Source: Minisyncoccota bacterium (GTDB lineage: Bacteria; Patescibacteriota; Minisyncoccia; UBA6257; 2-01-FULL-56-20). From it: 64,000 nt of DNA. How positions within the stretch are numbered: position 1 is the first letter of the stretch; every line of letters begins with the position of its first letter. The notes beneath the pieces were generated by a model that did no database searches, had not been told where the DNA came from, and worked only from the letters and a program-made list of their open reading frames with translations. Shown here in pieces: positions 11,009 to 62,106 of this stretch. The stretch is from the NCBI GenBank assembly GCA_025449695.1, contig JANWIW010000027.1, positions 283-64,282 of the forward strand, in the 5' to 3' direction. The translations under genes were made by a program, and so were the position numbers.

Positions 11009-11110
11009 CGTCAGTTGCAGCTCCAAATGCCCTTACAAGGACGCTTGGAGCCGCAACCGACGGATTTCAAAATGCGCTTTCATTATAACACATAACTATA
11101 CAAAAAGCAA
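11009..11110 (-). promoter_or_regulatory. Sigma70 promoter + boxA-like motif + 19-bp leader hairpin
   Basis: TTGCTT-17-TATAAT, CATTTTGAAA, stem 11009-11062 whose only non-Watson-Crick pairs are three G-U pairs on the sense strand. Confidence 0.75.
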
Positions 11111-11117
11111 GTTTCTG

Positions 11118-12479
11118 TCAAGCCGTGGTCTGCTCGGATGGGACATGCTTGCCTGCTTCCACGTTCACGAAGAGGTACTTCGCCGTTTTCAGGATAATAG
11201 CCAGGTCCACCAGGAAGGAGCGGTTCTTCACGTAGTAGATGTCGTACTTCAGCTTCTCCCTGGCCTCGTCCAGGGAGGCGGAAGGCCGGAAATTTATCTG
11301 AGCCCAGCCGGTCAGGCCGGGTTTTACCACATGGCGGATGTTGTAGTAGGGAAAGGCCCGGTATTGCTCCACGAGTTCAACCCGTTCCGGCCGCGGGCCG
11401 GTGAAGGAGATGTCCCCGCGGACGACGTTCCAAAGCTGGGGGATCTCATCCAGATGGGTGAGCCTGAGGAGCTTGCCGAACGGCGTGACGCGCCGGTCGT
11501 TTTTCTCCGTCCAGGCGGGCGTGCCGTCGTTCCCGCCCTGCCAGGTGGTCATGGTGCGGAACTTGTAGAGCGTGAATGTCTCGTCGTTCTTGCCCACGCG
11601 CGCCTGCGCGAAGATGGCGGGGCCGCGTGAGGTGAGCTTGATGAGGAACGCGATGAGGAGGGTGAGGGGGATGAGCGCCACAGAGAACGCGACTCCCAGC
11701 ACGAAATCCACAAACCGCTTGACCAGGTCGTAACCCGGGCGGCGAGTCGTGACGTGCTCGAGGAACCAGCCCTCTTCCAGCTCGCCGAGCGGTACGCGCT
11801 CGAAGACCAATTCGTAGAAGTCGGTGAAGTTCACGATGGTCACCCCGAGCGGCAGGAGATCGTATAGGGCTCGTATGGCCGCCGGGTCCTTGGTGAGCGA
11901 AGGTTGGATGATGAGCGTATGCGCGCCGTGCTTCTCGATGAGCCGGGGCAGATCCTCCATTTGCAGGGGCCCGAACTCCTCAATCCATGCCGCCGCCTCG
12001 TAGCCGGCATGGGGATGCTTCTTCAGGAACTTCAGGAGCTCCTCGATCTCCGGAGAGCGGCCGATGACGATGGCGGGGGAGGGACGGAAGCGCGCCACCG
12101 CCAGAAAGGTGCTGCGGAATAAATACTCCCCGGCGATCACGACCGCCGCGAAAAGGAATAGGTTGGTCTTAGGGGTGAGCTGGAAGAGCGACTGGAAAAG
12201 ATAGAAAAGTACGATGGAGACCAGGGCGGCGATGCCCACCGCGGTCATGATCCGGTTCACGAGCGAGTTGTAGTTCACGAACGCCCGCTCGCGGTAGAGG
12301 TCCATGACCATGAATACGAAGAGCCACCCGATGAAGAGCAGGGAGAACGGCGCGAGGTGGATGCGCCAATAGTCCTCGAAATTACGGCCCTGATAGCGTA
12401 TCAAAAGCGTCGCGGCGAGCGCGGCGTAGAGTAATATCACGTCCCCGGCGAGCAGGACGAGCTTCTTTGTCCGGGACAT
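11118..12479 (-). CDS. Polyprenyl-phosphate sugar phosphotransferase (initiating glycosyltransferase)
   Basis: KRFVD, KFRTM, LDEIPQLWNV, GPRPER and VKPGLTGWAQ motifs. Confidence 0.95.
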   Translation of the reverse strand: MSRTKKLVLLAGDVILLYAALAATLLIRYQGRNFEDYWRIHLAPFSLLFIGWLFVFMVMDLYRERAFVNYNSLVNRIMTAVGIAALVSIVLFYLFQSLFQLTPKTNLFLFAAVVIAGEYLFRSTFLAVARFRPSPAIVIGRSPEIEELLKFLKKHPHAGYEAAAWIEEFGPLQMEDLPRLIEKHGAHTLIIQPSLTKDPAAIRALYDLLPLGVTIVNFTDFYELVFERVPLGELEEGWFLEHVTTRRPGYDLVKRFVDFVLGVAFSVALIPLTLLIAFLIKLTSRGPAIFAQARVGKNDETFTLYKFRTMTTWQGGNDGTPAWTEKNDRRVTPFGKLLRLTHLDEIPQLWNVVRGDISFTGPRPERVELVEQYRAFPYYNIRHVVKPGLTGWAQINFRPSASLDEAREKLKYDIYYVKNRSFLVDLAIILKTAKYLFVNVEAGKHVPSEQTTA

Positions 12480-12513
12480 CGTTCTTTATAGTAGCACTGG
12501 GAAACGCCCGGCG

Positions 12514-13983
12514 CTACGAGAATAGGCTGCGGGGATCGAGGTACCTCAAGAGTTCTTCGCGCATGGCGACGAGCGCCGCGCCGTAGACTGCGATGCCCGC
12601 CAGGATGGAAATAATGACGTGCACGCCCATCCGTTCCAGAACGAACACGAACGCTCCCATGAGGAGGCTCGCCGCGGCAATCTTCCCCAGATGCCGCAGC
12701 GTCTGGAAGGGAGCGACTCGCTTCAGTCTCCACCAGGTGAATCCGTTCGCGAGGATCTGCGCGAGGATGGTCGCGACAGCGGAGCCCGCGATCCCCCAGT
12801 GGGGGATGAGTAGGAAGTTGAAGAGCGCGTTGCCGAGGGTGCCTATCGCCAGGAACACGATGGCGCTTCGCTGTTCGTTCTTCGCGAAGATGCCGTTCGC
12901 GAGGAAGGAGGCGGGGAAATGCGTGAGGGCGGTGGCGAGAAGGATCAGGAAGGCCGGGGTCGCCGCCTCGTATTCAGCGCCGAAGAGGAGGACGATGATG
13001 TTCCTCCCGAGAACGAGACCGCCCACGAAGATGGGGATGGCGAGAAAGAAGGCGAAGCTCATGATCCTCTCCATGAGCATCCGGAAGCGATCGCCCTCGA
13101 GGATGGCCAGGCGAGACATGGCCGGGAAGAGGACCGTGGACAGGGTCTGCGGCACCATGTACAGGATGAAGATCGGCCGCTGGGCCGCGCTGTACAGGCC
13201 GAGGGCGGTGGCGTTCATATACCAGCCGAGCATCACGGTGTCCGTGTTCAGCATCAGGCTGCCGAGGAAGCCCATGAGACCGAACGGGATTCCCTCGACG
13301 AGAATCCGCCTCACAAGGCCCTTTTCGAAGTGCCGCCAGAAACCCCAAAAGTGCTTCCAGAGCATCGCATAGGCGAGCACCATGCCGCAGCCCGCGCCGA
13401 GGGTGTAGCCGATCATGAGCGCGAGCGGGCTCGGCTGGAGGATAAGAAGCCCCAGGCCGATGCCGGTGATAGCGACGTTCGTGAAGGTGATGATAAGAGC
13501 CTCGAGCTCCATCCGCTCCGAGGCGCGAGTGAGCGACGTCGTGAAATCCCTCAGGCCGTCGAAAGCGATGAGGAGCGCGGCCCACGGCAGGAGGGCCAGG
13601 GCGCCGCTGATGTTCGTGAAGAAAGGTACCACCGCGAAGAGGAGGATGGTGTTCGCGGCGACGAGTACGAGCTTAATGGCGAAAGACGTGCCCAAGTATG
13701 CGGGCAGCCGGGCGGGATTGCGCGCGCCCTCGCGGGTGAGGATTGAGCTTACCCCGATATCCGAAAAGAGAGAGAAAAAGCCGGCCAGTCCCACCGCGTA
13801 GGAGAACACGCCGTAGCCAGCCGCGCCGAGCACGCGCGCCGCGTAAATGAGAATAACGGCGCGGATGATCCGGCCGCCTATCGTGGACGCGGAGAGCCAA
13901 AAGGTGTTCTTGAACACGGTCTGGCGCATGGAGCTGTTCTCGAAGAGCAGGCTTTTCGCGCGGGGAAAAAATCCAGGCATCAT
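12514..13983 (-). CDS. Wzx-type flippase
   Basis: KNTFWL, ARVLGAAGYG, DTVMLGW and GLYSAA motifs; highly hydrophobic. Confidence 0.9.
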   Translation of the reverse strand: MMPGFFPRAKSLLFENSSMRQTVFKNTFWLSASTIGGRIIRAVILIYAARVLGAAGYGVFSYAVGLAGFFSLFSDIGVSSILTREGARNPARLPAYLGTSFAIKLVLVAANTILLFAVVPFFTNISGALALLPWAALLIAFDGLRDFTTSLTRASERMELEALIITFTNVAITGIGLGLLILQPSPLALMIGYTLGAGCGMVLAYAMLWKHFWGFWRHFEKGLVRRILVEGIPFGLMGFLGSLMLNTDTVMLGWYMNATALGLYSAAQRPIFILYMVPQTLSTVLFPAMSRLAILEGDRFRMLMERIMSFAFFLAIPIFVGGLVLGRNIIVLLFGAEYEAATPAFLILLATALTHFPASFLANGIFAKNEQRSAIVFLAIGTLGNALFNFLLIPHWGIAGSAVATILAQILANGFTWWRLKRVAPFQTLRHLGKIAAASLLMGAFVFVLERMGVHVIISILAGIAVYGAALVAMREELLRYLDPRSLFS

Positions 13984-15766: not shown

Positions 15767-15767
15767 T

Positions 15768-27226: not shown

Positions 27227-27311
27227 GGAGGGGTCGCATAGCGGTCTAGTGCGCACGCTTGGAAAGCGTGTGTACCGAAAGGTACCGAGGGTTCGAATCC
27301 CTCCCCCTCCG
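27227..27311 (+). tRNA. tRNA-Ser(GGA)
   Basis: GGAGGGG/CCCCTCC acceptor stem, anticodon loop TTGGAAA, long variable arm, GGTTCGAATCC. Confidence 0.97.
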
Positions 27312-27457
27312 CGAGAAGGTCTTATGAGCGAAGCGAGCTAGGGCTTCTCGCGCCCCGCGCTGCGTCCCGCGAAGCTTTAGCGGAGTGGGATTGCTTTGTA
27401 GAACCTTCGTTCGTTGGGTAGTTTTATTTTTGTGGATTCTATGTTGTACTAAACGGT

Positions 27458-28591
27458 ATGATTGATGAGTGGCAGGAAGCCGAGTCTTTTGAAGGAAGCA
27501 CGCTTCATAGTGCGCTGGGAGGGCCCGCGGAGCATCCCGAGGCGAGCGCCAAAAGCGAGTTCGCAGAGACGATATCCCTTCTCAGGTTTTTGAACGAAGG
27601 GGCTCTTCGGGGCGTACTGACACAGTTTCTGACTCAGTTTCCCGGAAGTAGGGAAAGCATGGAGGCAGTCATAAAGAACGTGGCGCGACGCAAGATAGAG
27701 CAAAGGGATCCCGACGAGATAGACGCAATTCTTGATCAGGCTGACAAGAATGGAGCGAATCCCGAGGCGCTGGTACAAATGCTTATGCAGAGTATCTCGC
27801 TGGGTAATAGCAAATTGCGTAGGGACTGGAGTGTTTTCACGGGCGCGACCGCAAATGTACGTTTCGCGTTGTCACACGTAGAGAACGCGGAAGCCGACGT
27901 CGAGAGTGAGCTGAGAGCCCTCGCAAAGGAGAGGTCGGACCACACGGCCAGTATCACCTTTATGAAAAGACTTATACTGAAGAAGCTGCCGGACAGGGCT
28001 AAGGATATCAAAAGATTCTTCGAAGAATCTGATCTTGCGGCAGCGGAGGTTGATTACCGCGCGAGGATTTTCTTCTCTCATGGCCGCGCGGATCTCCATG
28101 ACGCTGGTCCGAAAGGAAAGCGGATGGAGGAGATACTTTCGACGCTGAAGCATGACAAGAAGGTGGAGGTGTGGCAGGACGTACAGGGCATACAAACAGC
28201 GGATGATTTTCAGGAGCGTATCTTAAACGCTATCATCCATTCCGACCGGGCAGTGGTAATGCTCGGCAACGCCTCCATTCGCAGCGAGTGGGTCTTCAGG
28301 GAAATACAGGCCTTTCAGCTTTATGGAATCGATATCGTGCCAATCCTTGTAGAGGATATTGTCCCGCCCGACCAAGAGAAAGAACCTGAAGCATGGGCCC
28401 GCTATCAGGAGATCCGAGAGCGTATAGGCGCACTCAATTATATTGACGTGCGCAAATTAGAACCCTTGCCCTCTGCCGGGAAGGAAAAAGCTTCGGAATC
28501 GGCGGCATTGCGCAAGAAGATCTCGGGCGATTTCGAGAGACTGCTCCCTTTGAACGATCAGGAGCGTTTCGATCGATTCTATAAAGTCTGA
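27458..28591 (+). CDS. TIR-domain protein with an uncharacterised N-terminal region
   Basis: IFFSHGRAD, VWQD, SIRSEWVFREI and IVPILVE match the TIR_2 pattern including the catalytic Glu. Confidence 0.85.
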   Translation: MIDEWQEAESFEGSTLHSALGGPAEHPEASAKSEFAETISLLRFLNEGALRGVLTQFLTQFPGSRESMEAVIKNVARRKIEQRDPDEIDAILDQADKNGANPEALVQMLMQSISLGNSKLRRDWSVFTGATANVRFALSHVENAEADVESELRALAKERSDHTASITFMKRLILKKLPDRAKDIKRFFEESDLAAAEVDYRARIFFSHGRADLHDAGPKGKRMEEILSTLKHDKKVEVWQDVQGIQTADDFQERILNAIIHSDRAVVMLGNASIRSEWVFREIQAFQLYGIDIVPILVEDIVPPDQEKEPEAWARYQEIRERIGALNYIDVRKLEPLPSAGKEKASESAALRKKISGDFERLLPLNDQERFDRFYKV

Positions 28592-29239: not shown

Positions 29240-29722
29240 TTACCGCTGGTAGTTCCTGAATTCGATGTCGAGCGTCCGACGGTCGATCCCGATCGCCACC
29301 GAGCCTTCGTCGCGCGCACCCTCGCCGCTTTTGAGGCGAGTGCCGTTCGGCGACAGGGTCATGCGGTCGTGGACGCTGATGTAGACCGTCGTGACGCCTT
29401 CCCGCTCCCACGCGTAATACTTGCAGGTCCAGTGGAACTGGAGCCGGCTCGTCATCCAGCGCGTTTCGATGACGCGCTCCTTGGTGTCGCGGCCGCAGAA
29501 AGATTCGAGGCGTCCTTCCACTTCGCGGATGTCCTTTGCGTCGCCGACGATCTTCTCGATCTCGTCGACTGCGGGAGCGATCTGCTGGCGGAACACGGCG
29601 CGCGTCTGGACGCAGATGAGAAGAATGAGAGCGAGAATTGCGAGAGCGGGCATGAAACCGATGCTGAGCAGACTGCCTGCAGTCGTGGGTTGTCTCGGGG
29701 TCGTGGTCGTCTGAGCTTTCAC
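29240..29722 (-). CDS. Hypothetical protein with an N-terminal TM segment
   Basis: SD AGGAGG before GTG 29722. Confidence 0.65.
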   Translation of the reverse strand: MKAQTTTTPRQPTTAGSLLSIGFMPALAILALILLICVQTRAVFRQQIAPAVDEIEKIVGDAKDIREVEGRLESFCGRDTKERVIETRWMTSRLQFHWTCKYYAWEREGVTTVYISVHDRMTLSPNGTRLKSGEGARDEGSVAIGIDRRTLDIEFRNYQR

Positions 29723-29768
29723 ATTGCCTCCTGTTGTTGGTTGAACTGAAATTTCCTCGGTCGTATGG

Positions 29769-29867
29769 GCCGAGGACCGGGAAGAAGGCGAGTGAGCGCC
29801 CTCTTCCCGACCTCCGGCTATATCAAGAAGCGTTTCCATATTATACAATATACACGGTAAATGTCAA
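29769..29867 (-). promoter_or_regulatory. Promoter + boxA-like motif + leader hairpin
   Basis: TTGACA-16-TATAAT, CTTCTTGATAT, ~21-bp stem at 29769-29818. Confidence 0.7.
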
Positions 29868-32362: not shown

Positions 32363-34150
32363 ATGGGTCCGGAGACCCCTTCGACGGCTTCAATAAGTTC
32401 ACCGCAAGCAAGCTCAGGGCAAGACCGGGTATGCGCGAACTGCAAGGAACGGTTCACACTTGATCCGGATGATTTTTCTTTTTATCAAAAAATAGAGGTC
32501 CCGGCGCCTAGGTTCTGTCCCGCCTGCCGCAATCAGCGCCGGAGAGCATGGCGGAACGACATCTCTTTCTATAAAAGACAGTGCGATCTTTGCAAGAAGA
32601 ACATTGTCTCCCTCTACTCGCCGGACAAGACCCTTACCGTCTATTGCCAGAAATGCTGGTGGTCGGACGCTTGGGACCCGAAAGCTTACGGGCGAGATTT
32701 CGATTTCTCGCGGCCGTTTTTCGAGCAGTACCGCGAGCTTCAGAACGTGGTGCCCCTGATCGCGCTCATGAACGACGATGGGATAGGGAGCATCAACTGC
32801 GAATACACGCAGAACGTATCCTCGGCAAAGAACTGCTACATGGTGTCCTCTTCCTGGAAGAACGAGGAGTGCGCGTACGACATGCAAATATCCGGTCCGG
32901 AGCTTCGCGAGGTGTTCGATTCCCTGGATATCTTCCAGAAGTGCGAGATGGTGTACGACAGCATCTTTCTGGAGAGCTGTTACCGCGTACGAAACTGCTA
33001 CCGATCGTTCGCGCTCGTTGATTGCGCGTTTTGCCTGGAGTGCCGGGATTGCCAGGACTGCTTCATGTGCGTAGGGCTTCGCCGCAAGCGCTACTGTTTC
33101 AAGAACAAGCAGTATACGAAAGAGGAGTACGAGAAGATACTGGCGGAGTACAGGTTAGATACTTGGGACGGCAGGGAGCGCGCCCGGAAAGAATTCCAGG
33201 AGTTCATCCTGGAATATCCCCGCGAGTTCGCTATCCTCCGGAACTGCGTGAACTGTACGGGCGATCAGATGTTCAACTGCAAGAATATGAAGTATTCCTT
33301 CAATGTGCGGGGAAGCGAGGATACGGCATATTTCGAGAACGGTAATATCATCAAGACAGGATACGACATGGCGACAGGCGGCGAGAACGAAGAATGCTAC
33401 GAGGGCATCACTCCCGACAACGACTATCGGGCATTATTCACCATCTTCTCCTGGAAGAACTCGCATGCTGAGTATTGCGAGAATTGCCACTCTGGACAGA
33501 ATCTTTTCGGATGCTCCAGCCTGCGCGGCGCAAAGTACTGCATCTTGAACAAGGAATACACCAAAGAGGATTATCACGAGCTCCGCATCAGAATCGTCGA
33601 GCATATGAAGAAGACCGGGGAATATGGAGAGTTCTTCCCGGCGAAGCTCTCCCATTTTTGTTATAACGAGACCACTGCCCAGATGTATTTCCCGATCACC
33701 AAAGAAGAAGCACTGGCCAAAGGATATCGCTGGCAGGATAGCTTCCAGTTCACGACCGGCAAAGAGACGATCAAGGTAGAAGCTCTGCCCCAGACCATCG
33801 CGGAGGTGGGTGATGGCATTATGAAAGAGGTGCTTGCTTGTACTAACTGCAAACGTAATTACATCATCGTCCATCAGGAGCTCCAATTCTATCGGCGAAT
33901 GAACCTGCCTTTGCCGCGCCAATGTTTCTACTGCCGCAATGACGAGCGAATGCGTCTTCGGAACCCGTTCCGCCTTTGGCAGAGGCAGTGTGACTGCAAG
34001 GGCGCAGGATCGACTAACGGCATATATGCGAACGGAGAACCCCACTTCCACGGGGAAAAGGCATGTCCCAACACGTTCCAAACCCCCTATGCTCCCGAGC
34101 GCCCGGAGATAGTGTATTGTGAAGAATGCTATCAAGCCGAAGTCGTATGA
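32363..34150 (+). CDS. Cys-rich zinc-ribbon/repeat protein, paralog 1
   Basis: CxxC..P..CPxCRxxRR, CWWSD.WDP, DFSRPFFEQ, CxxC repeats, YGEFFP and YCEECYQ motifs. Confidence 0.9.
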   Translation: MGPETPSTASISSPQASSGQDRVCANCKERFTLDPDDFSFYQKIEVPAPRFCPACRNQRRRAWRNDISFYKRQCDLCKKNIVSLYSPDKTLTVYCQKCWWSDAWDPKAYGRDFDFSRPFFEQYRELQNVVPLIALMNDDGIGSINCEYTQNVSSAKNCYMVSSSWKNEECAYDMQISGPELREVFDSLDIFQKCEMVYDSIFLESCYRVRNCYRSFALVDCAFCLECRDCQDCFMCVGLRRKRYCFKNKQYTKEEYEKILAEYRLDTWDGRERARKEFQEFILEYPREFAILRNCVNCTGDQMFNCKNMKYSFNVRGSEDTAYFENGNIIKTGYDMATGGENEECYEGITPDNDYRALFTIFSWKNSHAEYCENCHSGQNLFGCSSLRGAKYCILNKEYTKEDYHELRIRIVEHMKKTGEYGEFFPAKLSHFCYNETTAQMYFPITKEEALAKGYRWQDSFQFTTGKETIKVEALPQTIAEVGDGIMKEVLACTNCKRNYIIVHQELQFYRRMNLPLPRQCFYCRNDERMRLRNPFRLWQRQCDCKGAGSTNGIYANGEPHFHGEKACPNTFQTPYAPERPEIVYCEECYQAEVV

Positions 34151-34167
34151 CCGAAACGCGCACTTGC
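34089..34167 (+). repeat. Junction direct repeat, copy 1
   Basis: 73/79 nt identical to 35840-35918; last 35 nt identical. Confidence 0.9.
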
Positions 34168-35901
34168 GGTCATTGCCGGAGATCCTTTGTCGTGGAGGCG
34201 GACGATTTCTCGTTCTACGAAAAACTCAACGTGCCGCCTCCGACCTTCTGTCCGGATTGTCGCAAGCAGCGGCGGTTGGCATGGCGCAATGATAGTACGC
34301 TTTACTCAAGAGCTTGCGGTCTTTGCGATAAGAACACGATATCCATCTACGCGCCAAACGGCCCCATGCAGATCGTCTATTGCCAGAAGTGCTGGTGGTC
34401 CGACAAATGGGACCCCAAAGAGTACGGCGCAGAATACGATTTCTCCAAAACTTTCTTCGAGCAGTTTGCGGAACTTCAGCGGCGCGTTCCCGCACTCGCG
34501 ATGACCAATGACGACGGCATTAGCAGTGTCAATTCTGAATATACCCAGGATTTTGCGCGAGCAAAGAACTGCTACATGTGTTTCATCGGCTGGAAGGTGG
34601 AGGACTGCCTGTACGATTTCTACATCATAGGAGGTAAAGAGATAGTAGACGCGATCAACAGCATGGGGGAATGCGAGTACACTTATGAAACCGTCTATAC
34701 GGAGAAGTGCTATCAGAGCAGATATATCTACTCCTCGGTTTCCGTCTCCGACAGCGCTTTTTGTTATGATTGCAGGGACTGCACGGATTGTTTTATGTGC
34801 GTCGGTTTGCGGCACAAGCGGTATTGTTTCAAGAACAAGCAATACACCAAAGAAGAATACGAGAAAATACTTGCCGATTATCGCTTGGACACATACACCG
34901 GCGTGGAGCGTGCGAAGAAGGAGTTCGCGGACGTATTTTTCAGCAAGCCCAGGCGGTTCGCCATGCTCCGTAACTGCTTCAACTGCACTGGTGATGCGCT
35001 GATCAACGGCAAGAACTCAAAATACTGCTTTAACGTGCAGCGCCCCGAAGAAACCCGGTGGGTGGAGAATGGCGATACGCCGAAAGACAGCTACGATTTG
35101 AGCGTGGGAGGCGAGTTGCAGCAATGTTATGAAGGAATCACTCCGGACCATTCGTACCAAAGCCGCTTTGCCATATTTTCCTGGAGGAATACAGATGTTT
35201 CTTATGTCGACGGCTGTCATGCATCCGAACATCTTTTTGGATGTGCGGGCCTTAAGAAGGGACAGTACTGCATTTTCAACAGGCAATATCCGAAAGAGGA
35301 ATACGAGTCATTGGTAAAAAAGATAAAAGCGCAGATGGATGGTATGCCCTACGCCGACCGGCAAGGCATAAGCTACAAGTTTGGGGAGTTCTTCCCTGCG
35401 GAACTCTCCTATTTCCGATACAACGAGACCGTTGCACAGGAATCCTTCCCTCTTACCAAGGAGAAGGCCTCTGCGGAGGGATTGGATTGGCAGGAGCAAT
35501 TCCAGGTCACGATCGGGAAGGAGACGATCGATATCGCTAAGGTCCCCGATGCGATCGCCGACGTACCCGACTCCATAGTGGACGAGGTGCTTGCATGCGC
35601 AGGATGCGCGAGAAATTATCGCATAGTGCCTGCCGAGCTCAAGTTCTATCGCAGGATGAGGATCCCCCTTCCCCGGCGTTGTTTTTACTGTCGTCAGGCA
35701 GACCGGCTGAAATTCAAGAACCCCCATAAACTGTGGCACAGGCAGTGCCAATGCGCAGGAGAAAAGGAAAGCGGTTTCAAGAACACAGCAGCTCATTTCC
35801 ATGGCAAGAATTCTTGCCCCAATGAATTCGAAACCCCTTATGCTCCCGAGAGCCCCGAGATAGTGTATTGTGAACAGTGTTACCAAGCCGAAGTCGTATG
35901 A
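34147..35901 (+). CDS. Cys-rich zinc-ribbon/repeat protein, paralog 2
   Basis: Same motifs; ATGA overlap with paralog 1. Confidence 0.9.
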   Translation: MTETRTCGHCRRSFVVEADDFSFYEKLNVPPPTFCPDCRKQRRLAWRNDSTLYSRACGLCDKNTISIYAPNGPMQIVYCQKCWWSDKWDPKEYGAEYDFSKTFFEQFAELQRRVPALAMTNDDGISSVNSEYTQDFARAKNCYMCFIGWKVEDCLYDFYIIGGKEIVDAINSMGECEYTYETVYTEKCYQSRYIYSSVSVSDSAFCYDCRDCTDCFMCVGLRHKRYCFKNKQYTKEEYEKILADYRLDTYTGVERAKKEFADVFFSKPRRFAMLRNCFNCTGDALINGKNSKYCFNVQRPEETRWVENGDTPKDSYDLSVGGELQQCYEGITPDHSYQSRFAIFSWRNTDVSYVDGCHASEHLFGCAGLKKGQYCIFNRQYPKEEYESLVKKIKAQMDGMPYADRQGISYKFGEFFPAELSYFRYNETVAQESFPLTKEKASAEGLDWQEQFQVTIGKETIDIAKVPDAIADVPDSIVDEVLACAGCARNYRIVPAELKFYRRMRIPLPRRCFYCRQADRLKFKNPHKLWHRQCQCAGEKESGFKNTAAHFHGKNSCPNEFETPYAPESPEIVYCEQCYQAEVV

Positions 35902-35918
35902 CCGAAACGCGCACTTGC
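35840..35918 (+). repeat. Junction direct repeat, copy 2
   Basis: atgctcccgagagccccgagatagtgtattgtga...gaagtcgtatgaccgaaacgcgcacttgc. Confidence 0.9.
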
Positions 35919-37580
35919 CAGAACTGCAGCCAAGGGTTCTCCATAGAGGACGAGGACTTCAATTTCTACAAGAAGATAGAAGTGCCGCCGCCGACTCTCT
36001 GCCCCGACTGCCGCCAACAGCGTCGTATGGCTCATCGAGACAAAAACTATTTTCTAAGAAACTGCGACAAGTGCGGCAAAAGCTCCATTTCCATTTGGCA
36101 CCCCGACATTAAAGGCTATCTTTTTTATTGCAACGATTGCTGGTGGAAGGATGATTGGGATGCCTTCGAGTACGGGCGGGATTTCGACTTCTCTCGTCCG
36201 TTCTTCGAGCAATTCAACGAGCTGTACAAAGCCGTGCCGAAGCATATCTCGAACGCGATGCTTAATATGAAAAACTCCGACTACTGCATCAATGCCTCGC
36301 GGAGCAAAGACTGTTATATGGCTGACGAGATAGACGAATCAGAGCGTTGCGCCTACGGATACTGCGTCCAGAACTGCAAAGACTGCACAGATTGCCTCTA
36401 TGTCAACGAATGCGAGATAGGCTATGAGCTGGTGAAGTGCGATAACAACTATAAGGTTTTCTATGCCTACGATTCACACGCTTGTAATAACTCCGCGTTC
36501 CTGGCTCATTGTCGGGGCGTTTCAAATTCGCTGTTTTGCACCAATAAATACAACGTCACGAATTACTTGTTCAATGAACCCTCCACCGCAGAGGAAGTGA
36601 AGAAGGCCTGGGACGAAATCTTCTGTGGCAAAAACGGCAAACTCCAGGAGGCGCTCGCCAAGTACCAGGAGATCCTCAAGTCCTCCATCTCTCGTCCGCT
36701 TATCGGTACGAACGTCAAGAACTCATCGGGCAATTTTCTGGTTAACGTCCAGAATTGCAAAGACTGTTATTCGATAGACAACAGTATCAACTGTAAATAC
36801 TGCACGGACATCCATCATTCCAAAGACAGCATGGACGTGCATATTTACATCAGCGAACTGAGCTATGAGAGCCTTCACGCCTGGGGTTATAAACAGCTAT
36901 TCTCGCATCTCCTTTGGAACTGCTCCGATGCTACCTACGCCGACGAATGCCATAACAGCCAAGACCTCTTCGCCTGTTGCGGCCTCAAGAAAAAACAGTT
37001 CTGTATCCTCAACAAGCCTTATAGCAAGGAAGAATATCTGGAGTTGAAAGAAAAGATCATTGCCCACATGAAGCAGACCGGCGAGTACGGCGAATACTTT
37101 CCGGTTTCCATGTCGCCGCACGGCTACAACCACACCTTCGCGCAAGAGTTCTATCCGATGACCGAAGGAGAAGTAAAACAGCGCGGCTGGCAATGGCTTC
37201 CTGAAATCAACATCAGGGACAAGTACAAAGACAAAGTGATCACCCAGCTTCCTGATGATATCGCGGAAACCACACCCGCAATCTGTAATGAGATATTCGA
37301 GTGCGAAGCGAGTGGCAGGTTCTATCGGATAATTCCCGATGAGTACCAGTTTTATAAGAAGCACGGCTTGCCCCTGCCGCGTTTGTCGTCTCAAGAGCGC
37401 GACCATCTGCGTTGGGAGAAAACGAAGCCACGCCATCTATGGGACAGGGAATGTGCCTGTGCGAAGCAGTCCCACTTCCACGGGGCCAGCTCTTGCTCCA
37501 ATGCATTTAGGACCACACATGCTCCCGAGAGCCCCGAGATAGTGTATTGTGAGCAGTGTTACCAAGCTGAAGTCGTATGA
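35898..37580 (+). CDS. Cys-rich zinc-ribbon/repeat protein, paralog 3
   Basis: Same motifs; ATGA overlap with paralog 2. Confidence 0.9.
   Translation: MTETRTCQNCSQGFSIEDEDFNFYKKIEVPPPTLCPDCRQQRRMAHRDKNYFLRNCDKCGKSSISIWHPDIKGYLFYCNDCWWKDDWDAFEYGRDFDFSRPFFEQFNELYKAVPKHISNAMLNMKNSDYCINASRSKDCYMADEIDESERCAYGYCVQNCKDCTDCLYVNECEIGYELVKCDNNYKVFYAYDSHACNNSAFLAHCRGVSNSLFCTNKYNVTNYLFNEPSTAEEVKKAWDEIFCGKNGKLQEALAKYQEILKSSISRPLIGTNVKNSSGNFLVNVQNCKDCYSIDNSINCKYCTDIHHSKDSMDVHIYISELSYESLHAWGYKQLFSHLLWNCSDATYADECHNSQDLFACCGLKKKQFCILNKPYSKEEYLELKEKIIAHMKQTGEYGEYFPVSMSPHGYNHTFAQEFYPMTEGEVKQRGWQWLPEINIRDKYKDKVITQLPDDIAETTPAICNEIFECEASGRFYRIIPDEYQFYKKHGLPLPRLSSQERDHLRWEKTKPRHLWDRECACAKQSHFHGASSCSNAFRTTHAPESPEIVYCEQCYQAEVV
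37519..37580 (+). repeat. Junction direct repeat, copy 3
   Basis: 60/62 nt identical to 35840-35901. Confidence 0.9.
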
Positions 37581-39286
37581 GCAACGAAACCAAAACCTGC
37601 CAAAACTGCAAGAAGGAGTTCGTTATCGAACCGGACAACGCCGCGTTCTGCGCGCACATGCAGGTGCCGCTCCCGACCTGGTGCCCGCCCTGCCGCCGCT
37701 TGCGGCGCATGGGCTGGACCGGCTACAGGATCCTCTATAAAAGGAAATGCGCCTACTCGGGGGAGGATATCATCACCTTCTACCATCCCAACGCTCCGTA
37801 TGTGATCTACAAGCAGGACATATGGTGGAGCGACAAGTGGGACCCCAAGAGCTACGGACGGGACTACGATTTCTCCAAGCCGTTCTTCCAGCAGTTCGAC
37901 GAGCTTCTGCGGTCGGTGCCCCTGCCCTCGCTCCATACGGAGTACACGACTCTCGTGAACAGCGACTACTGCAATGCCGTAGGGGGCCTGAAGAACTGCT
38001 ATCTGGTCTTCCAGTCCGGGGACGGGGCCTCGCATATAGGCCACGAGAATACGGCATACATGCACATGGTGGACGACACGAAGGACAGCATGGACATGTC
38101 CTTCTCCTCGAACTGCGAGCTTTGCTACGAGTGCGTGCGCTGCTTTGGATGCTTCCGGGCGCGCTGGTCCGCGAACTGCGACGAATGCCATAACGTCGCG
38201 TTTTGCCAGAGCTGCATTGGCTGTTCCGACTGCGTCGGCTGCGTGAATTTAAAGAACAAGTCGTATTGCATCTTCAACGAGCAGTATTCCAAGGAAGAGT
38301 ACGAGCGCAAGCTGAAGGAGCTCGATCTGGGATCCCGCGAAGGATTGGACAGGTTCGCGGTGGAATTCGCCAAGTTCGCGGAAAAGATGCCCCATCGCAT
38401 GTTCTACGGCCGGCACAACACTTCTACTTCCGGCGACTACATCTCCAATTCCAAGAACGTCCACGATTCCTACATCGTCCATGGCGCAGAGAACGTGCGC
38501 TACGGGCAGCTGCTGAGCGCGCCCGCGGCCAACGCCTACGACTACACGCTCTTCGGCACGTTTGCGGAGTGGATCTACGAATGCGCGTGGAATGGCTTGA
38601 GCAGCAACACGCTCAAGTTCTGCTTCTGGAACTACCACGCCCATCATCTTGATTACTCCCTCGGCTGCCACGGGTCGGAGAACCTGTTCGGCTGCGTGGG
38701 GGTTCGCAAGGGCTCCTATTGCATCTTGAACAAGCAATATTCCAGGGAGGAGTATCAGGAACTCGTCGCGGATATAAAACAGCAGATGGCGGAAATGCCC
38801 TACGTGGACCGCCTGGGCCGGAACTACTCGTACGGGGAGTTCTTCCCGCCGGAGATATCGCCCTGGACCTTCAACGAGTCTATGGCGTCCCTGGGCTTCC
38901 TCCCTTTGTCCCGCGAGGAAGCCCTGGCGCAGGGGTTTAACTGGCGCGAGGATGATGGCCGCCAGTATCGGGAGCCGACCGCGCCGGTACCGGCAAGTAT
39001 CAAGGATGTTCCCGAAGATTTCTCCAAGGAGATACTGAAGTGCGAGTATTGCGGTAAGAACTACCAGATCATCCCCATGGAATTGGATTTCTATCGCCAG
39101 TGGGACGTTCCCATCCCTTTGCGCTGCCCCTTGTGCAGGGAGAAAGACAGGGTCGCCAGCCTGAACCCCATGGCCATCTACGACCGGGAGTGCATGAAGT
39201 GCGGCAAGTCCATTCAAACCTCCTACGCGCCAGAAAGGAAAGAGATTGTATATTGCGAGACCTGCTATCAAAACGAAGTTGCATAG
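37577..39286 (+). CDS. Cys-rich zinc-ribbon/repeat protein, paralog 4
   Basis: Same motifs; ATGA overlap with paralog 3. Confidence 0.9.
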   Translation: MSNETKTCQNCKKEFVIEPDNAAFCAHMQVPLPTWCPPCRRLRRMGWTGYRILYKRKCAYSGEDIITFYHPNAPYVIYKQDIWWSDKWDPKSYGRDYDFSKPFFQQFDELLRSVPLPSLHTEYTTLVNSDYCNAVGGLKNCYLVFQSGDGASHIGHENTAYMHMVDDTKDSMDMSFSSNCELCYECVRCFGCFRARWSANCDECHNVAFCQSCIGCSDCVGCVNLKNKSYCIFNEQYSKEEYERKLKELDLGSREGLDRFAVEFAKFAEKMPHRMFYGRHNTSTSGDYISNSKNVHDSYIVHGAENVRYGQLLSAPAANAYDYTLFGTFAEWIYECAWNGLSSNTLKFCFWNYHAHHLDYSLGCHGSENLFGCVGVRKGSYCILNKQYSREEYQELVADIKQQMAEMPYVDRLGRNYSYGEFFPPEISPWTFNESMASLGFLPLSREEALAQGFNWREDDGRQYREPTAPVPASIKDVPEDFSKEILKCEYCGKNYQIIPMELDFYRQWDVPIPLRCPLCREKDRVASLNPMAIYDRECMKCGKSIQTSYAPERKEIVYCETCYQNEVA

Positions 39287-51271: not shown

Positions 51272-51371
51272 TTGACACGCTTCTACATTTGGCGTTGAAT
51301 AAGCAATCGTCCCTTGATAAGCAGGTCCGGAAAACCCAAGGGCAGCTATCTGCGCTTGGGTTTTCCGGACC
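51272..51371 (+). promoter_or_regulatory. Promoter + boxA-like motif + 17-bp leader hairpin
   Basis: TTGACA-17-TTGAAT, GTCCCTTGATAA, perfect stem at 51324-51371. Confidence 0.7.
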
Positions 51372-51417
51372 GAACGCCGAATGCATCCTAACGATGTTGA
51401 AACCTGTGGAGGGACCG

Positions 51418-51801
51418 ATGAACAAGAACATTCGAGACGATATCACCGTGCTCACCGACCTGGACGACACGGATTACGACCGCATGATAACGCGGTTATA
51501 CATCATGCTGACCGAAACTCCGCCGTCCAAGCTCGTGCTCGACGTCACCGCAATGCGTAGCGCCAGTAATGCCGTGGCAAGCACGATCTGGCTGCGTTGG
51601 ACCATGGTGAACCAGAACCGCGTGCTCGCGGTCGTAGTCACCAGGGAGCAGCGTACGCGCCTGGCAGCGAACCGCGTGGCCGAGCTCCTCAACACTTTCG
51701 ACGACGTTGAGGCGGCTGTCGCGGCTGTCACCGCGGGCACGGTGCCTCCGGTGACCGATTCCGTCGAACCACAACAGGTTCAAGAGGAGGTTGTGTCATG
51801 A
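51418..51801 (+). CDS. STAS-like (anti-anti-sigma fold) protein
   Basis: LVLDVTAMR and C-terminal FDDVEAAV patterns; SD GGAGG. Confidence 0.65.
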   Translation: MNKNIRDDITVLTDLDDTDYDRMITRLYIMLTETPPSKLVLDVTAMRSASNAVASTIWLRWTMVNQNRVLAVVVTREQRTRLAANRVAELLNTFDDVEAAVAAVTAGTVPPVTDSVEPQQVQEEVVS

Positions 51802-52142
51802 AGACCTATGTGGAGCAGAGCGTCCTGGTCGTGGTCCTTGGTGACGGCGACTACGACGACTGGGACCGCACCATCGCCGCCCTCGAGCCGGCCTGTCTGG
51901 TCGTGCTCGATCTCCGGAGTAATCTGGATCCCGGAGAGTCGGTGCGGAGAGCGGTGTCGGCACAGCGGCACGTCCAGGCCCACCACGGTGCTATTGCCGT
52001 CGTCCTGTCACCGCAGCTCAGCCTCGACTTCGAAGCCGATCCGAGACTGGCTTCCAATTTCGCTTCGTACCCGGGCGTCGGCAGGGCGGTGGACGCGCTC
52101 CTCAACGGCGAGGTGCCGCAAGCCATGGCGGTGACAGTATGA
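51798..52142 (+). CDS. Second STAS-like protein
   Basis: VVVLGD, VVLDLR and YPGVGRAVDAL patterns; ATGA overlap; SD GAGGAGG. Confidence 0.6.
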   Translation: MKTYVEQSVLVVVLGDGDYDDWDRTIAALEPACLVVLDLRSNLDPGESVRRAVSAQRHVQAHHGAIAVVLSPQLSLDFEADPRLASNFASYPGVGRAVDALLNGEVPQAMAVTV

Positions 52143-53247: not shown

Positions 53248-53345
53248 TTGATCGATATGGAAATTTTATGTTTAGATAACTCATCGATCTTTGAAAAGCT
53301 TGTGACACCAGAAAAGGCTTGTCAGACCTTTTCTGGCGTCACAAG
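53248..53345 (+). promoter_or_regulatory. Promoter + boxA-like GATCTTTGAAAA + 19-bp leader hairpin
   Basis: 53265-53296 is 29/32 identical to 57470-57501; stem at 53299-53345. Confidence 0.75.
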
Positions 53346-53384
53346 ACAAAGCCAGCAAATCTAACGCGAAAAGGAGAACGACAA

Positions 53385-53750
53385 GTGCAACAGATTCTCG
53401 TCATCACCCACAACGGCCTCCCGCCGAGCCAGGGAGGCAAGCGCCTCGGTTACGTCTGCGGCGACCTCGCCTTCATGTTCGGTGGTCCACCGCAAGGCAT
53501 CTCCCTCTCACGCCTCCGCATGATTCGAGAAGAGGAAGAGAAGAAAGCCGTGCCCGTACCCCCGTCATCCTCGCCGCCAGTCACGATGGTGGTCTACAAC
53601 ACGTTGAAGGAGGCGCAGTATTCGGACGGCGAGTGCCCGCACTGCGGCAAGTACCCGAACCCGACGGTGGACCTTCTCACCACGACGGGTATGCGACGGG
53701 TCGTTCAATGCACGAAATGCAACGAGTTCGCCCGTCCGTACGGGACCTAA
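53385..53750 (+). CDS. Orphan protein with a C-terminal zinc ribbon
   Basis: CPHC and CTKC motifs; SD AAGGAG before GTG; hairpin after the stop. Confidence 0.7.
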   Translation: MQQILVITHNGLPPSQGGKRLGYVCGDLAFMFGGPPQGISLSRLRMIREEEEKKAVPVPPSSSPPVTMVVYNTLKEAQYSDGECPHCGKYPNPTVDLLTTTGMRRVVQCTKCNEFARPYGT

Positions 53751-57452: not shown

Positions 57453-57565
57453 TTGACGAATCTGGATTATTTATGTTTAGATAATTCACCGATCATTGAA
57501 ATGAATTTATACGGAACTTGACCTGGAAGCCTAAGCGCAAAGACCGTTTAGGCTTCCAGGTCAGG
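57453..57565 (+). promoter_or_regulatory. Promoter + boxA-like GATCATTGAAA + 19-bp leader hairpin
   Basis: TTGACG; stem at 57517-57565 with two G-U pairs. Confidence 0.75.
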
Positions 57566-57673
57566 AAAGACTACGTAAAGGAGGTTGGAACGATCGTGGA
57601 GCTTGAGACTGCGAGCGACGTGCATGTCGCTGGCTTGTGGTTGTTACCTTTGAACTGAGACGGAGGTTCTCCT

Positions 57674-59080
57674 ATGTTCAACGCTAAACTCGCCCTCATG
57701 GATTCCAGGGATCTCTGGCGAGAAAAATTACTCGCCCCTCTCATTGAGTTCGGGCGTATCCCGGGCATCTCGCCCGGCTATGCCCCGACCTGGGCCGCCG
57801 ACGGGCACATCCAGCGCACCGCCGAATTCATGGCGTCGTGGTGCAGGACGTTGCCCATCCGTGGACTCAAGGTGAAGATCATGCGCTCCGGCAAGAGGAC
57901 GCCGATGCTTCTCGTCACCGTCCGCGGCAAGGTGCGCGGCACAGTGGTCGGGTACGCACACGGCGACAAACAGCCGGTGCTCGAAGCCTGGCGCCGCGGT
58001 CTCGATCCGTGGACGCCTCTGCGGAGGGGCAGGAAGCTCTTCGGCCGGGGCCTGGCCGACGACGGCTACGGACTCTTCGCGCTCATGGGCGCGCTCATGA
58101 TCCTTCAGCAACAGGAGGTTGACCACCGTACCTGCGTCTGCATCATCGAGTTCTCCGAGGAATCGGGGAGCGTCGACCTGCCGGCGTATCTCAAGAAGCT
58201 GCGGCGCCAGCTCGCCAACCCGTCGCTCATCGTCTGTCTCGATTCCGGAGCAGGCGACTATGGTCATCTGTGGCTGACCGGCTCCCTGCGCGGCGTCGGC
58301 AACGGCTTCCTGGAAGTCAAAACGATGCTGACCGGCAAGCACTCTGGTGAAGGTACAAACATCGTGGCCGACACGTCGCGCATCACCCGCCACCTGCTTG
58401 ACCGCATCGAGGACTCCGCGACCGGCCGGATCATCATTCCCGGCGTCGACGTGGAGATTCCCGAGGACCGCATGGCGGAGCTCAGGGCGGCCGCGGAGGC
58501 CATGGGTGACAATGTGTGGAAGGATATGCCTCTCCTCCCCGGCGTGCGGCCGATGAGCGATGACCCGCTCGAGCTGCTTCTGAACCGCACCTGGCGCGCG
58601 GGCCTCACGCAGACCGGCATTGCCGGCATCCCCGGCCTTGACGGAGGCAACGTGCTCCGGCCGAGCACCACCACCAAGCTCTCTATGCGGTTCGCGCCGA
58701 CGGCCGACGCCCACGCCCTCATGGCGAGGATGAAAGAGATTCTCGAAGCGGATCCGCCGTACGGCGCGCAGGTCACCTTCACGCTGAGCCAGGTCGTCCA
58801 GGGCTGGACCGCCCCCGAGATGCCGGCATGGCTTGCGGCGAGCGCAGCCGAATCTTCCCAGGCCTTCTTCGGACGGCTGGTCAAGATCCTCGGCGAGGGC
58901 GGCTCGATCCCGTTCATGAAGATGATGAGCGACTACTTTCCCGGCTCGCCGCTCTTCATTACCGGTCTGCTCGGACCCGGAGCCAACGCTCACGCGCCGA
59001 ACGAGTCGCTCGACCTGCCGACGGTCGTGAAGCTCACGGCCACGATCGCCAAGCTGCTCGCGGACGACGCGCGCCGCTGA
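57674..59080 (+). CDS. M20-family metallopeptidase
   Basis: YAHGDKQP, GRGLADDGYG, EESGS, HSG, GGSIPF and NAHAPNE motifs; SD GGAGG. Confidence 0.93.
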   Translation: MFNAKLALMDSRDLWREKLLAPLIEFGRIPGISPGYAPTWAADGHIQRTAEFMASWCRTLPIRGLKVKIMRSGKRTPMLLVTVRGKVRGTVVGYAHGDKQPVLEAWRRGLDPWTPLRRGRKLFGRGLADDGYGLFALMGALMILQQQEVDHRTCVCIIEFSEESGSVDLPAYLKKLRRQLANPSLIVCLDSGAGDYGHLWLTGSLRGVGNGFLEVKTMLTGKHSGEGTNIVADTSRITRHLLDRIEDSATGRIIIPGVDVEIPEDRMAELRAAAEAMGDNVWKDMPLLPGVRPMSDDPLELLLNRTWRAGLTQTGIAGIPGLDGGNVLRPSTTTKLSMRFAPTADAHALMARMKEILEADPPYGAQVTFTLSQVVQGWTAPEMPAWLAASAAESSQAFFGRLVKILGEGGSIPFMKMMSDYFPGSPLFITGLLGPGANAHAPNESLDLPTVVKLTATIAKLLADDARR

Positions 59081-59963: not shown

Positions 59964-60437
59964 ATGCAGCCGAATATCACTTTCTCGTCCACCACCAATA
60001 TGCTTCTCATGAGAGAAGGGAAGATACTTCTCTTAAAGAGGAGCGATGCCAAGACATTTTCCGGCCGGTATATGCTTCCGGGAGGGAAGCAACACGAGAA
60101 CGAAACCCTCGAGGAAGCCGCTATTCGGGAAACCTTCGAGGAGACCGGCCTCAAAGTATCCGATGCTTCTTTGAGGGTCGTCTCTACCAACTATCATGAA
60201 TACAAAGCGAGGGTATACCTCGTGCACATCTTTACGTCCTCGAAGTTCGCGGGGTCGCTCACCGGCTCCCGAGAAGGGACCTTGGAGTGGGTTGGTACAA
60301 AAGATGCCCTTGCCAATCCCATGCTCTATCCCGACCTCAAGCGGCACATTCAGTTTATTCTCGACCCCAAGTCTCCAAACCTCGCCTTCACTTATCACAA
60401 GTTCAACGAGGCGCTCGAAATCACGGAGTCTAGGTAA
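59964..60437 (+). CDS. NUDIX hydrolase (MutT-like)
   Basis: LPGGK..ETLEEAAIRETFEETGL. Confidence 0.92.
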   Translation: MQPNITFSSTTNMLLMREGKILLLKRSDAKTFSGRYMLPGGKQHENETLEEAAIRETFEETGLKVSDASLRVVSTNYHEYKARVYLVHIFTSSKFAGSLTGSREGTLEWVGTKDALANPMLYPDLKRHIQFILDPKSPNLAFTYHKFNEALEITESR

Positions 60438-61101
60438 ATTTTTCGGATTTCACGTTCGCTTCAAGAGCTCCCAGCTCCAGGACATTATCGACCATCTCAT
60501 CGATAAAGCCGTCCGGTCCGCAGATGTAGAAAAGAGCCTGTGGGTTCTTGGCCAGTGCGCCGACGGGATCTTTGAGGAAGCCCAGATCAATCCTCTCTTC
60601 GGTGGCGGTAAAGCGGGTGATCAAAATGTCCTTCAGGGCATCATAGTGCATGATGCGGGAGGCGTCCTTCGCGCTCATCACGAACGCGCAGGTGCCATGA
60701 GGATACTTGAAGCGATAAGCGCGATAGATAGACAGCAGGGGAGTGATGCCCGAACCGGCTCCGAGGAGCACGAGCGGCCCGGAAGCGTCGGCGTCCCAGA
60801 CGAAAGATTCGCCGAGCGGTCCGCGGATCTCGATCTCGCTGCCCTCCGCGAGGCCCCAAAGCTGGGGGGATAACACCCCGTTCCGGATCAGCTGGACCCC
60901 GAACTCCAGGCTGTCTCCCGGCTCGTACGGACTGGATGCGATGGAGTACTTCCGGGAGATGTCGCTTCCCGGCATGCGCAGTTCATAGTGCTGGCCGGCC
61001 CTGTAGGGGATGTAGGACTCGGGCTTCAGAACGAGAGACCTGATATCGAAAGAGGCGGGAGCGCTCTTCACGATCTTTGCTTTTTGCCAGGAAGGGTTCA
61101 T
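60430..61101 (-). CDS. FNR-like FAD/NAD(P)-binding oxidoreductase
   Basis: RKYSIAS, GVLS, GPLG, GSGITP and YICGP motifs. Confidence 0.92.
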   Translation of the reverse strand: MNPSWQKAKIVKSAPASFDIRSLVLKPESYIPYRAGQHYELRMPGSDISRKYSIASSPYEPGDSLEFGVQLIRNGVLSPQLWGLAEGSEIEIRGPLGESFVWDADASGPLVLLGAGSGITPLLSIYRAYRFKYPHGTCAFVMSAKDASRIMHYDALKDILITRFTATEERIDLGFLKDPVGALAKNPQALFYICGPDGFIDEMVDNVLELGALEANVKSEKFT

Positions 61102-61904
61102 AGCAGTTCAACCGGGTCGCCGACGGCAATGGTGCCCGGACCTTCATGGGCGAGGTTCTGGCCGAACATGATGCCTTTGGGCTTGGTGCGATAGGTGCCG
61201 AGCGTCTCCAGCGGTTCTATGCCTTTTTCGCCGGTCGCCTGGTCCACGGTCGTGATCTCGCAGCGGGAACAGGGTTTCGCGGCGCGAAGCACCACGTCGC
61301 CGATCTTTATCTTTTGCCATGCGTCTTCCTGATACGGCGTTCCTCCGGCGACGACTATGTTCGGCCGGAACCTGTTCATAGGGAGCTTCTCCGCCAATCT
61401 CGAATTGAGGTCTTCCAAAGACGCTTCCGAGATCAGCAAAAACGGGAAGCCGTCCGCGAAGCCGACTACCTCCTTCTTTTCGGACTGGTATTTCTCTTTG
61501 ACCGGCCGCTTGAAATCCGGGGCCATGCGGATGAGGCGGGCCTGCCTGCCCATAAAATCGGTAAGCCAGCTCTCTACGCTTTCACCCTGGTCTATGCCGA
61601 TACAAGGGCTTTCCCAGACCTCGGTTTGGATGCGTGTTCCTTCTATCAAGATCGGTACGTCGAGAGGCGATCTCCCTTCGGCCGCGAGCCGGACCCCTCC
61701 GGGAAAAAGAATTACGCTGACCAATGCCAGCTTGGGGTGTTGGCGCTGGGTAATGAAATTTCCTTCGCCGTCTACGATCATCCACTCCCGGTCATGCTCG
61801 AACCCCGTATCAACCACCCTGCCGGACGTGAGCGCGATGCCGGCGCACGATTTCACCGGATAGATGTTGACCTCGGAAACCCTCAAGTTATTCAATCCCT
61901 CCAT
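61098..61904 (-). CDS. MOSC-domain protein (YcbX/mARC-like)
   Basis: IYPVKSC, DREWM, FADGFPFL, RFRPNIV, KPCSRC and FGQN motifs. Confidence 0.93.
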   Translation of the reverse strand: MEGLNNLRVSEVNIYPVKSCAGIALTSGRVVDTGFEHDREWMIVDGEGNFITQRQHPKLALVSVILFPGGVRLAAEGRSPLDVPILIEGTRIQTEVWESPCIGIDQGESVESWLTDFMGRQARLIRMAPDFKRPVKEKYQSEKKEVVGFADGFPFLLISEASLEDLNSRLAEKLPMNRFRPNIVVAGGTPYQEDAWQKIKIGDVVLRAAKPCSRCEITTVDQATGEKGIEPLETLGTYRTKPKGIMFGQNLAHEGPGTIAVGDPVELL

Positions 61905-61996
61905 GGTCCTCATAATACCTCGTGAGGCAAAGGTTCGTAATCCCATCCGCATCCGATACAGTAAGACGGAGATAGCAAGCGAGGACAGTTTGGAAA

Positions 61997-62106
61997 TTGA
62001 CAAATTATCCTATTTTGTGTTTCATAGAGTATGATCTTTGATGCTTCAATACGTAAGTTGATTCGGGAACCTAAGTGCCCGCAAGGCCTTTAGGTTCCCG
62101 AATCAA
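61997..62106 (+). promoter_or_regulatory. Promoter + boxA-like TGATCTTTGA + 18-bp leader hairpin
   Basis: TTGACA; stem at 62058-62106 followed directly by SD GAGGAGG. Confidence 0.75.

Follow-up and report, generated by a model that had tools for sequence, protein, structure and literature searches.

Leaders in which a boxA element precedes the start of a protein-coding gene are known from bacteria and phages. In the N leader of phage lambda (nutL) a structured segment lies between boxA and the start codon, and RNase III relieves the repression of N. In the boxA-regulated mRNAs of E. coli suhB and of a parE-like gene of C. koseri, boxA lies in the 5′ leader upstream of the Shine-Dalgarno (SD) sequence, as set out in the accessible part of the report that describes them (PMC5725501). 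Here we describe a leader of similar layout that recurs in a 64,000-nucleotide (nt) stretch of DNA from a Minisyncoccota bacterium (assembly GCA_025449695.1, contig JANWIW010000027.1, positions 283 to 64,282; hereafter the window), in which a promoter, a boxA-like word, a long RNA stem and a strong SD stand before accessory genes. The module is restricted to SD-led accessory genes in a cell whose 16S rRNA has no anti-SD and whose core genes have no SD, and the cargo of such genes in these genomes includes proteins whose maturation machinery was not found there. Judged from the sequence, there is somewhat less than an even chance that module mRNAs are meant for the ribosomes of a presumed host and not for the cell's own.

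An earlier note on this DNA had proposed six copies of the module, and each was found where it had been placed, with a TTG-led -35 box, a -10 box, a boxA-like word, a stem and an SD-led open reading frame (ORF) in that order (Table 1). The -35 box is present in all six copies, a clean TATAAT -10 box in only two. The boxA-like word follows 5–11 nt after the -10 box and the long stem lies 3′ of it. The hairpins are present but longer than the 17–21 bp first suggested, folding into stems of 20–24 pairs including an upper segment (-28.6 to -40.9 kcal/mol). Their sequences mostly differ, as had been claimed, although the stems at 57453 and 61997 form a related set with one on contig C8. Five of the first genes have no Pfam match; the exception is the module at 57453, which leads into a 20-codon ORF and then an M20 peptidase gene with its own SD. 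The window lies on contig C27 of a Paceibacteria-class genome of 983,527 bases in 37 contigs, 92.7% complete (genomes of the class measure 0.5–1.3 Mb). We call this genome G000; G001, G007, G012 and so on denote the relatives compared, C its contigs and L loci. Comparisons were made with 41 relatives (genus, family and order) and a class set of 151 genomes.

The nearest counterpart within G000 is its own rRNA leader: the 16S leader has the same promoter type, a small hairpin and then the same boxA word. The genome also encodes NusB and RNase III, the gene for the latter coming directly after nusB (G000:C4:12727-13956); an rpmF-like ORF, recognised by eye, precedes the pair. The module differs from the rRNA operon leader in that it heads protein genes, occurs in many copies, has no hairpin between the -10 box and boxA (that is, no boxB next to boxA) and carries a local stem in place of a leader-trailer helix; furthermore, a SuhB-family gene was not found in G000. 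The tRNA promoters of G000 have no boxA near the start.

About 19 modules occur in the genome: the six of the window, 12 listed by hand from whole-genome scans (two with a degenerate boxA, one with a longer spacer) and one on C30, which was picked up by a covariance model built from outside sequences and was also seen in the promoter scan. Of 25 promoter candidates with a boxA core, 10 were followed by a strong stem, compared with 7 of the 186 that lacked the core (p=1e-6); in a scan blind to promoters the figures were 11 of 17 for promoter-like boxA words, 2 of 43 for AT-rich words without a -35 box and 78 of 1025 for all remaining words. Counted over genes that have 90 or more free bases upstream, promoter, boxA and stem together preceded 11 of 117 SD-led genes, 1 of 385 others and none of 72 conserved core genes; the suggestion of a portable expression cassette for orphan genes fits, none of the roughly 19 modules standing before a core gene. 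The stem is optional, since the majority of SD-led genes have none, and at some promoters boxA is followed directly by the SD.

The leader is an RNA-level element. As the earlier note had observed, non-Watson-Crick pairs favour G·U on the sense strand; isolated ones in G000 comprise 24 G·U against 5 A·C (p=5e-4), and outside G000 the bias is 109 to 41. A covariance model was made from 26 outside homologous copies and not from the six in the window, because the stems of the latter are mostly not homologous. Both sides change in 13 of 18 pairs while 97% of cells remain paired (0 of 500 shuffles scored as high and slid controls reached at most 53%), although the choice of copies required the stem and relatedness among them raises such counts. 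Run over 430,605 bases of G000, the model gave six matches, all of them module stems, one being counted on both strands. A few pairs below the loop the family conserves an A-U pair (25/26), a G·U pair (21/26) and a mismatch, a step that an independent de novo search recovered from the G000 stems (information 7.8; highest of 12 shuffles, 6.25). Rfam gave no match at the modules, either at the gathering score or as a credible weaker one, returning only tRNA, tRNA-overlapping and chance microRNA-hairpin matches.

These results make it extremely improbable that the stem is a DNA-level palindrome (an operator, a repeat of the repetitive extragenic palindromic type or a recombination site) or a terminator. 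Palindromic repeats and stems of terminator type are numerous in the genome, but the sense-strand bias and the retention of G·U under covariation point to RNA, and no U-tract is present: the 8 nt beyond each of 18 stems hold no more than four T, whichever strand is read. A plain 5′ stabiliser, with no function for the stem beyond blocking RNase J, none for boxA beyond aiding elongation and an incidental SD, is very unlikely: RNase J is present in G000 and the stem lies near the predicted 5′ end, but an unpaired boxA stretch lies 5′ of the stem, and such a device gives no reason for the conserved A-U/G·U/mismatch step or for confinement to SD-led genes.

The duplexes measure about two helical turns and G000 has an RNase III gene. 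Scores under the E. coli RNase III base-pair matrix, taken from Supplementary Table S4 of PMC6212723, were weakly raised, with a mean z of 0.66 over 18 stems and 0.28 over 64, in a register that varies; the loop-side half of the stem resembles positions C–E of that matrix, and cleavage of the stems by RNase III is plausible. A switch serving the cell itself has to be weighed, one like the lambda N leader, in which boxA-bound Nus factors would hold the leader at the polymerase and keep it untranslated until the stem is cleaved by RNase III. Its order of boxA, long stem and start site, the stem length, the loop-side motif and the neighbouring nusB and rnc genes all favour such a switch, as does the long reach of translational repression by boxA, which extends up to 100 nt in suhB and to about 200 nt in lambda N (PMC5725501). 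We nevertheless consider it rather unlikely, given the weakly raised score with no fixed register and the absence of both SuhB and Rho, the latter found neither in G000 nor in any of the 151 class genomes. Repression of the suhB type, with Nus factors and Rho termination, requires both proteins. The described boxA-regulated mRNAs and lambda N further differ from the module in having boxB at the site or a cell with Rho and SuhB, in regulating themselves where the module has about 19 unrelated targets, and in a host whose 16S has an anti-SD.

The ribosomal RNA of G000 supplies the second part of the argument. After an intron, its 16S gene ends in helix 45 and a tail without CCTCC, identical across the helix 45 region and tail to a Liptonbacteria-labelled record. 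Among the 41 relatives the anti-SD is absent from all ten true 16S-end matches, which come from nine genomes (one further match was no 16S end). The first seven bases of the replacement tail are identical in all ten matches (from G000, G001, G007, G009, G010, G011, G021, G026 and G031), and this conservation across the order suggests a new role for the tail. Across the class the anti-SD is kept in 8 of 18 matched genomes, with 133 of 151 giving no match; among 50 genomes behind the loci of our scan eight were matched, six without and two with an anti-SD. A search by sequence word, without regard to accessibility, showed no evident substitute anti-SD in rRNA or transfer-messenger RNA of G000, only scattered CCTCC/CTCCT words, and uL1 was not found there. 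This agrees with the accessible part of PMC9297842, in which the anti-SD is detected in 48% of Parcubacteria and its loss overlaps that of uL1, G000 being likewise without both; that part infers that SD helices do not form and mentions no class of SD-led genes. As to the surroundings of the gene, the 16S intron (G000:C4:20185-23373) holds a LAGLIDADG-like ORF, its motif recognised by eye, and the 16S gene is unlinked to the 23S-5S genes on C13, which span about 5.5 kb and so also carry insertions.

Core genes make no use of the SD. Most genes of G000 have A at -11 and T at -7, a leaderless-start pattern, and a first count with a crude gene caller gave an SD-like word in 75 of 784. Where core starts were verified by homology, an SD preceded 0 of 61 in G000, 1 of 40 in two genomes without a full anti-SD and 1 of 32 in three anti-SD-positive genomes. 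Since the 16S has no anti-SD and the core genes no SD, a strong SD in this cell needs a reader beyond pairing with its own 16S. Genes that do carry one form a distinct class: 68 of 85 SD-led genes had no Pfam match compared with 38 of 110 non-SD genes (p=2e-10; 21 loci, about 44% of G000, with all SD-led genes and a random 110 of 324 non-SD genes scanned), two of the 17 matched ones were wrong internal starts, and an NCBIfam scan of 40 genes confirmed core genes only. GGAGG peaks 4–8 nt upstream of the start while a control word is flat, and the SD lies outside the stem in all 18 listed modules. In a genome of the same genus an SD preceded 46 of 155 genes not shared with G000, against 13 of 229, and in five other genomes 23 of 223 unshared genes. 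Ribosomes of the cell might start on these mRNAs without SD pairing, the SD being a relic or a protein-binding site, which would complete a switch for home use; we hold this to be doubtful, for it leaves unexplained the canonical spacing and strength of the SD on genes of native codon usage, and likewise the porins and lipoproteins in genomes without BamA or Lgt.

Codon usage of SD-led genes correlates with that of core genes (r 0.985; GC at third codon positions (GC3) 0.79 vs 0.81), and in each genome their GC3 roughly tracks the genome, usually lying slightly higher, which suggests long residence with the SD kept. In one orthologue pair from two anti-SD-less genomes the proteins are 62% identical, 41% of four-fold sites differ and the leaders are dissimilar, and both genes have an SD; the M20 peptidase of module 5 is at most 52% identical to its best listed relatives and has kept a perfect SD. 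Three loci found solely by protein search also have the promoter, boxA-like word, stem and SD-like site. Canonical spacing, native codons and retention of the SD in the orthologues and the M20 gene together make the SD look selected for initiation. That the modules are moron-like units, shaped by selection in anti-SD-positive donors, which anti-SD-less genomes then carry passively for a time, is decidedly unlikely. Such flux would suit the eight typed class genomes that keep an anti-SD, cargo that is unshared within the genus and the M20 gene, whose named best relatives are non-Patescibacteria; but anti-SD-positive relatives make no use of the SD on core genes either (1 of 32), the cargo is native in codon usage, related stems head unrelated ORFs within G000, and the stem was seen in only one of 91 viral contigs with promoter and boxA.

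Three clear lipobox proteins are present among 150 SD-led genes of G000, two of them behind full modules, yet no Lgt reached the cut-off in any of 41 genomes, and a search of five genomes for LspA was negative. G012, a member of the family, has two promoter-boxA-SD genes whose products carry a signal peptide and a C-terminal phenylalanine. One of these is a predicted beta-barrel (predicted local distance difference test (pLDDT) 94.8, folded with 110 aligned relatives, 35 of them matching Gcw_chp), with Foldseek matches to KdgM, NanC, Tsx and FapF. Six of the 151 class genomes gave a member of this porin family in a protein search, all six SD-led and situated among housekeeping genes; BamA was found in 0 of 10 genomes tested, one of them a single contig. 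In L471 and L473, from two genomes of one family, the porin-family leader spans only about 20 bases from the -10 box to the start, SD included, and the gene is inserted head to head with an endonuclease III-like gene. Named SD-led enzymes of G000 include the M20 peptidase, an asparaginase, HD and NUDIX hydrolases, ROK and PfkB kinases and a PurM-like protein (G000:C28:24685-25803; L394:6686-7585); a beta-strand-rich SD-led orphan of G000 has no homologue.

Expression units meant for foreign machinery have precedents. The T-DNA of Agrobacterium carries genes with expression signals that its owner does not use and that are meant for the host, and phage T7 is an example of an early, host-takeover module. 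The module resembles T-DNA in that its owner, with no anti-SD and an SD-free core, cannot read the signals in the usual way; it differs in having no defined transferred segment and a target that would be prokaryotic. Early genes of phage SPO1, as far as the accessible text of PMC3896407 goes, have terminators and RNase III sites and are read by the machinery of another organism, whereas the leaders here carry boxA, are dispersed between core genes of a cellular chromosome and are all but missing from the viral contigs.

If module mRNAs are indeed addressed to a host, the cell's own polymerase would transcribe them, and NusB-S10 would bind boxA near the 5′ end and uncouple the transcript from translation, as on rRNA. 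The stem would protect the 5′ end against RNase J, be trimmed by RNase III, or both, its conserved step being a putative protein-binding site. Host-derived ribosomes would then start at the SD once RNA or DNA had been transferred or the cytoplasms had mixed; the dispersal of the cassettes through the chromosome favours RNA transfer or cytoplasmic mixing over a defined piece of transferred DNA. A bolder version, possible but on the doubtful side, is that Patescibacteria deliver mRNAs to their hosts as effectors, with boxA and stem tagging and protecting the RNA while the host would make porins, lipoproteins and scavenging enzymes. In that version the SD class, 10–15% of genes with signals that the cell's own ribosomes cannot pair with, would constitute the effector set, and its products would feed the epibiont. 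How Patescibacteria draw nutrients from hosts and what is carried by a relaxase-less type IV secretion system, which occurs class-wide (10.1101/2025.01.22.634366), are posed as open questions in the available parts of PMC11665869 and 10.1101/2025.01.22.634366. Candidate VirB4- and VirD4-like ORFs of G000 were recognised by eye.

Several points weigh against messages for host ribosomes. We know of no passage of mRNA between bacteria for translation, and ribosomes without anti-SD pairing are still able to start correctly. NusB and the rrn boxA are kept in a cell without Rho, so boxA can act at home, and the codon usage of SD-led genes fits the cell and not a host. The SDs are predicted to be partly paired with bases outside the stem (unpaired probability 0.15–0.77, without a shuffle control), which leaves some room for their being parts of folded leaders, a reading that their spacing and their place outside the stem oppose. 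Gene calls came from a crude caller in which SD-guided choice of starts may inflate SD counts, and a control word was present in 63 of 928 genes compared with 150 with an SD. No SD-led orthologue of SD-led genes was found between G000 and 352 kb of a same-genus relative; such unshared cargo implies fast turnover, as gene flux predicts, and the test of SD retention between orthologues rests on one pair. The lipobox excess is small (4/150 vs 2/778 by script; 3 vs 1 by eye, p=0.015; 2/124 vs 3/1015 in eight other genomes). G000 has no porin-family member, one of the six porin-family genes has an in-frame stop, and the cell could itself make the porins and export them as protein.

By their sequence signature, related leaders occur across Patescibacteria. 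Promoter and boxA together were detected in 14 of 41 relatives and in 21 of 151 class genomes, compared with 0 of 151 when boxA was reversed. In a species-wide scan at least 50 of the 121 loci listed are labelled Patescibacteria, and among the loci listed a strong stem is present in 19 of 47 with that label, 4 of 60 with other labels and 2 of 8 unlabelled, six being too short to score. A strong stem followed promoter and boxA in 36 of 113 metagenome loci. Strong stems are scarcer in close relatives than in G000 (3 of 27 matches, of which two come from G000 itself), a protein profile of one family (A2) was weak (5 of 29 genomes), and non-Patescibacteria matches to promoter and boxA resembled, by eye, tRNA or rRNA promoters or CIRCE sites. 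Promoter-boxA-stem modules also appear in L059, L134, L142 and L149, from genomes labelled Bdellovibrionales or Gammaproteobacteria (about 1.1 Mb for the three sized), which are perhaps mislabelled or else belong to other small symbionts. In L428, a locus found by protein search, the module ahead of the matched ORF has an insert of about 90 bases between the stem arms. The commonest leader cargo outside G000 is a Pfam-less family of 200–300 amino acids (aa) (L050, L052, L079, L159, L175, L207 and others), mostly from Minisyncoccota in the Atlas and with DUF5701 as a lead.

The leader is real, widespread and apparently undescribed: neither the module nor a class of SD-led genes in Patescibacteria without an anti-SD was described in the literature searched, whose coverage mostly excluded subscription journals. 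A strong SD in a non-SD cell is a sequence tag for a candidate host-directed gene set in any such genome. Should the host reading fail, a phylum-wide boxA-stem leader in cells lacking both Rho and SuhB would remain a role for Nus factors on mRNA that has yet to be described, and the SD paradox would still await a solution.

Table 1. Components of the six leader modules, by position in the window
Feature	Position	Strand	Details
Module 1 -35 box	11105..11110	-	TATAAT 17 nt downstream
Module 1 boxA-like word	11065..11075	-	
Module 1 stem	11009..11062	-	24 pairs, -40.9 kcal/mol; family-A model match, E 0.005
Module 1 SD (11002-11006) and 128-aa hydrophobic orphan ORF (10609-10995)	10609..11006	-	
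Module 2 promoter (-35 box 29862-29867) and boxA-like word (29821-29831)	29821..29867	-	
Module 2 stem	29769..29818	-	21 pairs, -37.0 kcal/mol
Module 2 SD (29727-29732) and 160-aa orphan ORF (29240-29722)	29240..29732	-	GTG start
Module 3 promoter (-35 box 51272-51277) and boxA-like word (51309-51319)	51272..51319	+	
Module 3 stem	51324..51371	+	21 pairs, -40.6 kcal/mol
Module 3 SD, 127-aa ORF (51418-51801) and second SD-led 114-aa ORF (51798-52142)	51408..52142	+	
Module 4 promoter and boxA-like word (53286-53296)	53248..53296	+	boxA-like word closest to rrn boxA
Module 4 stem	53299..53345	+	20 pairs, -28.6 kcal/mol; family-A model match, E 0.002
Module 4 SD and 121-aa orphan ORF (53385-53750)	53372..53750	+	two CxxC motifs
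Module 5 promoter and boxA-like word (57491-57501)	57453..57501	+	
Module 5 stem	57517..57565	+	21 pairs, -36.8 kcal/mol
Module 5 SD, 20-codon ORF (57596-57658), second SD and M20 peptidase (57674-59080)	57579..59080	+	
Module 6 promoter and boxA-like word (62033-62043)	61997..62043	+	
Module 6 stem	62059..62105	+	20 pairs, -31.9 kcal/mol
Module 6 SD and 69-aa orphan ORF (62121-62330)	62110..62330	+	

For the first ORF of module 3 (51418) the Atlas gave a STAS (anti-sigma antagonist) lead with a high score, which a poor single-sequence fold (pLDDT 43.5) did not confirm. Non-SD genes at L385:5624-6693 and L391:1427-4005 encode an ECF sigma factor, an RsiV-like protein and an RseP-like protease. 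Elsewhere in the window, four tandem ORFs of 567–595 aa and lower GC occupy 32363-39286, three of them Pfam-less and one with a weak zinc-finger match. A TIR-domain gene at 27227-28591 directly follows tRNA-Ser, possibly a defence insertion, and 62655-62948 encodes a stand-alone SWIB/MDM2-domain protein.

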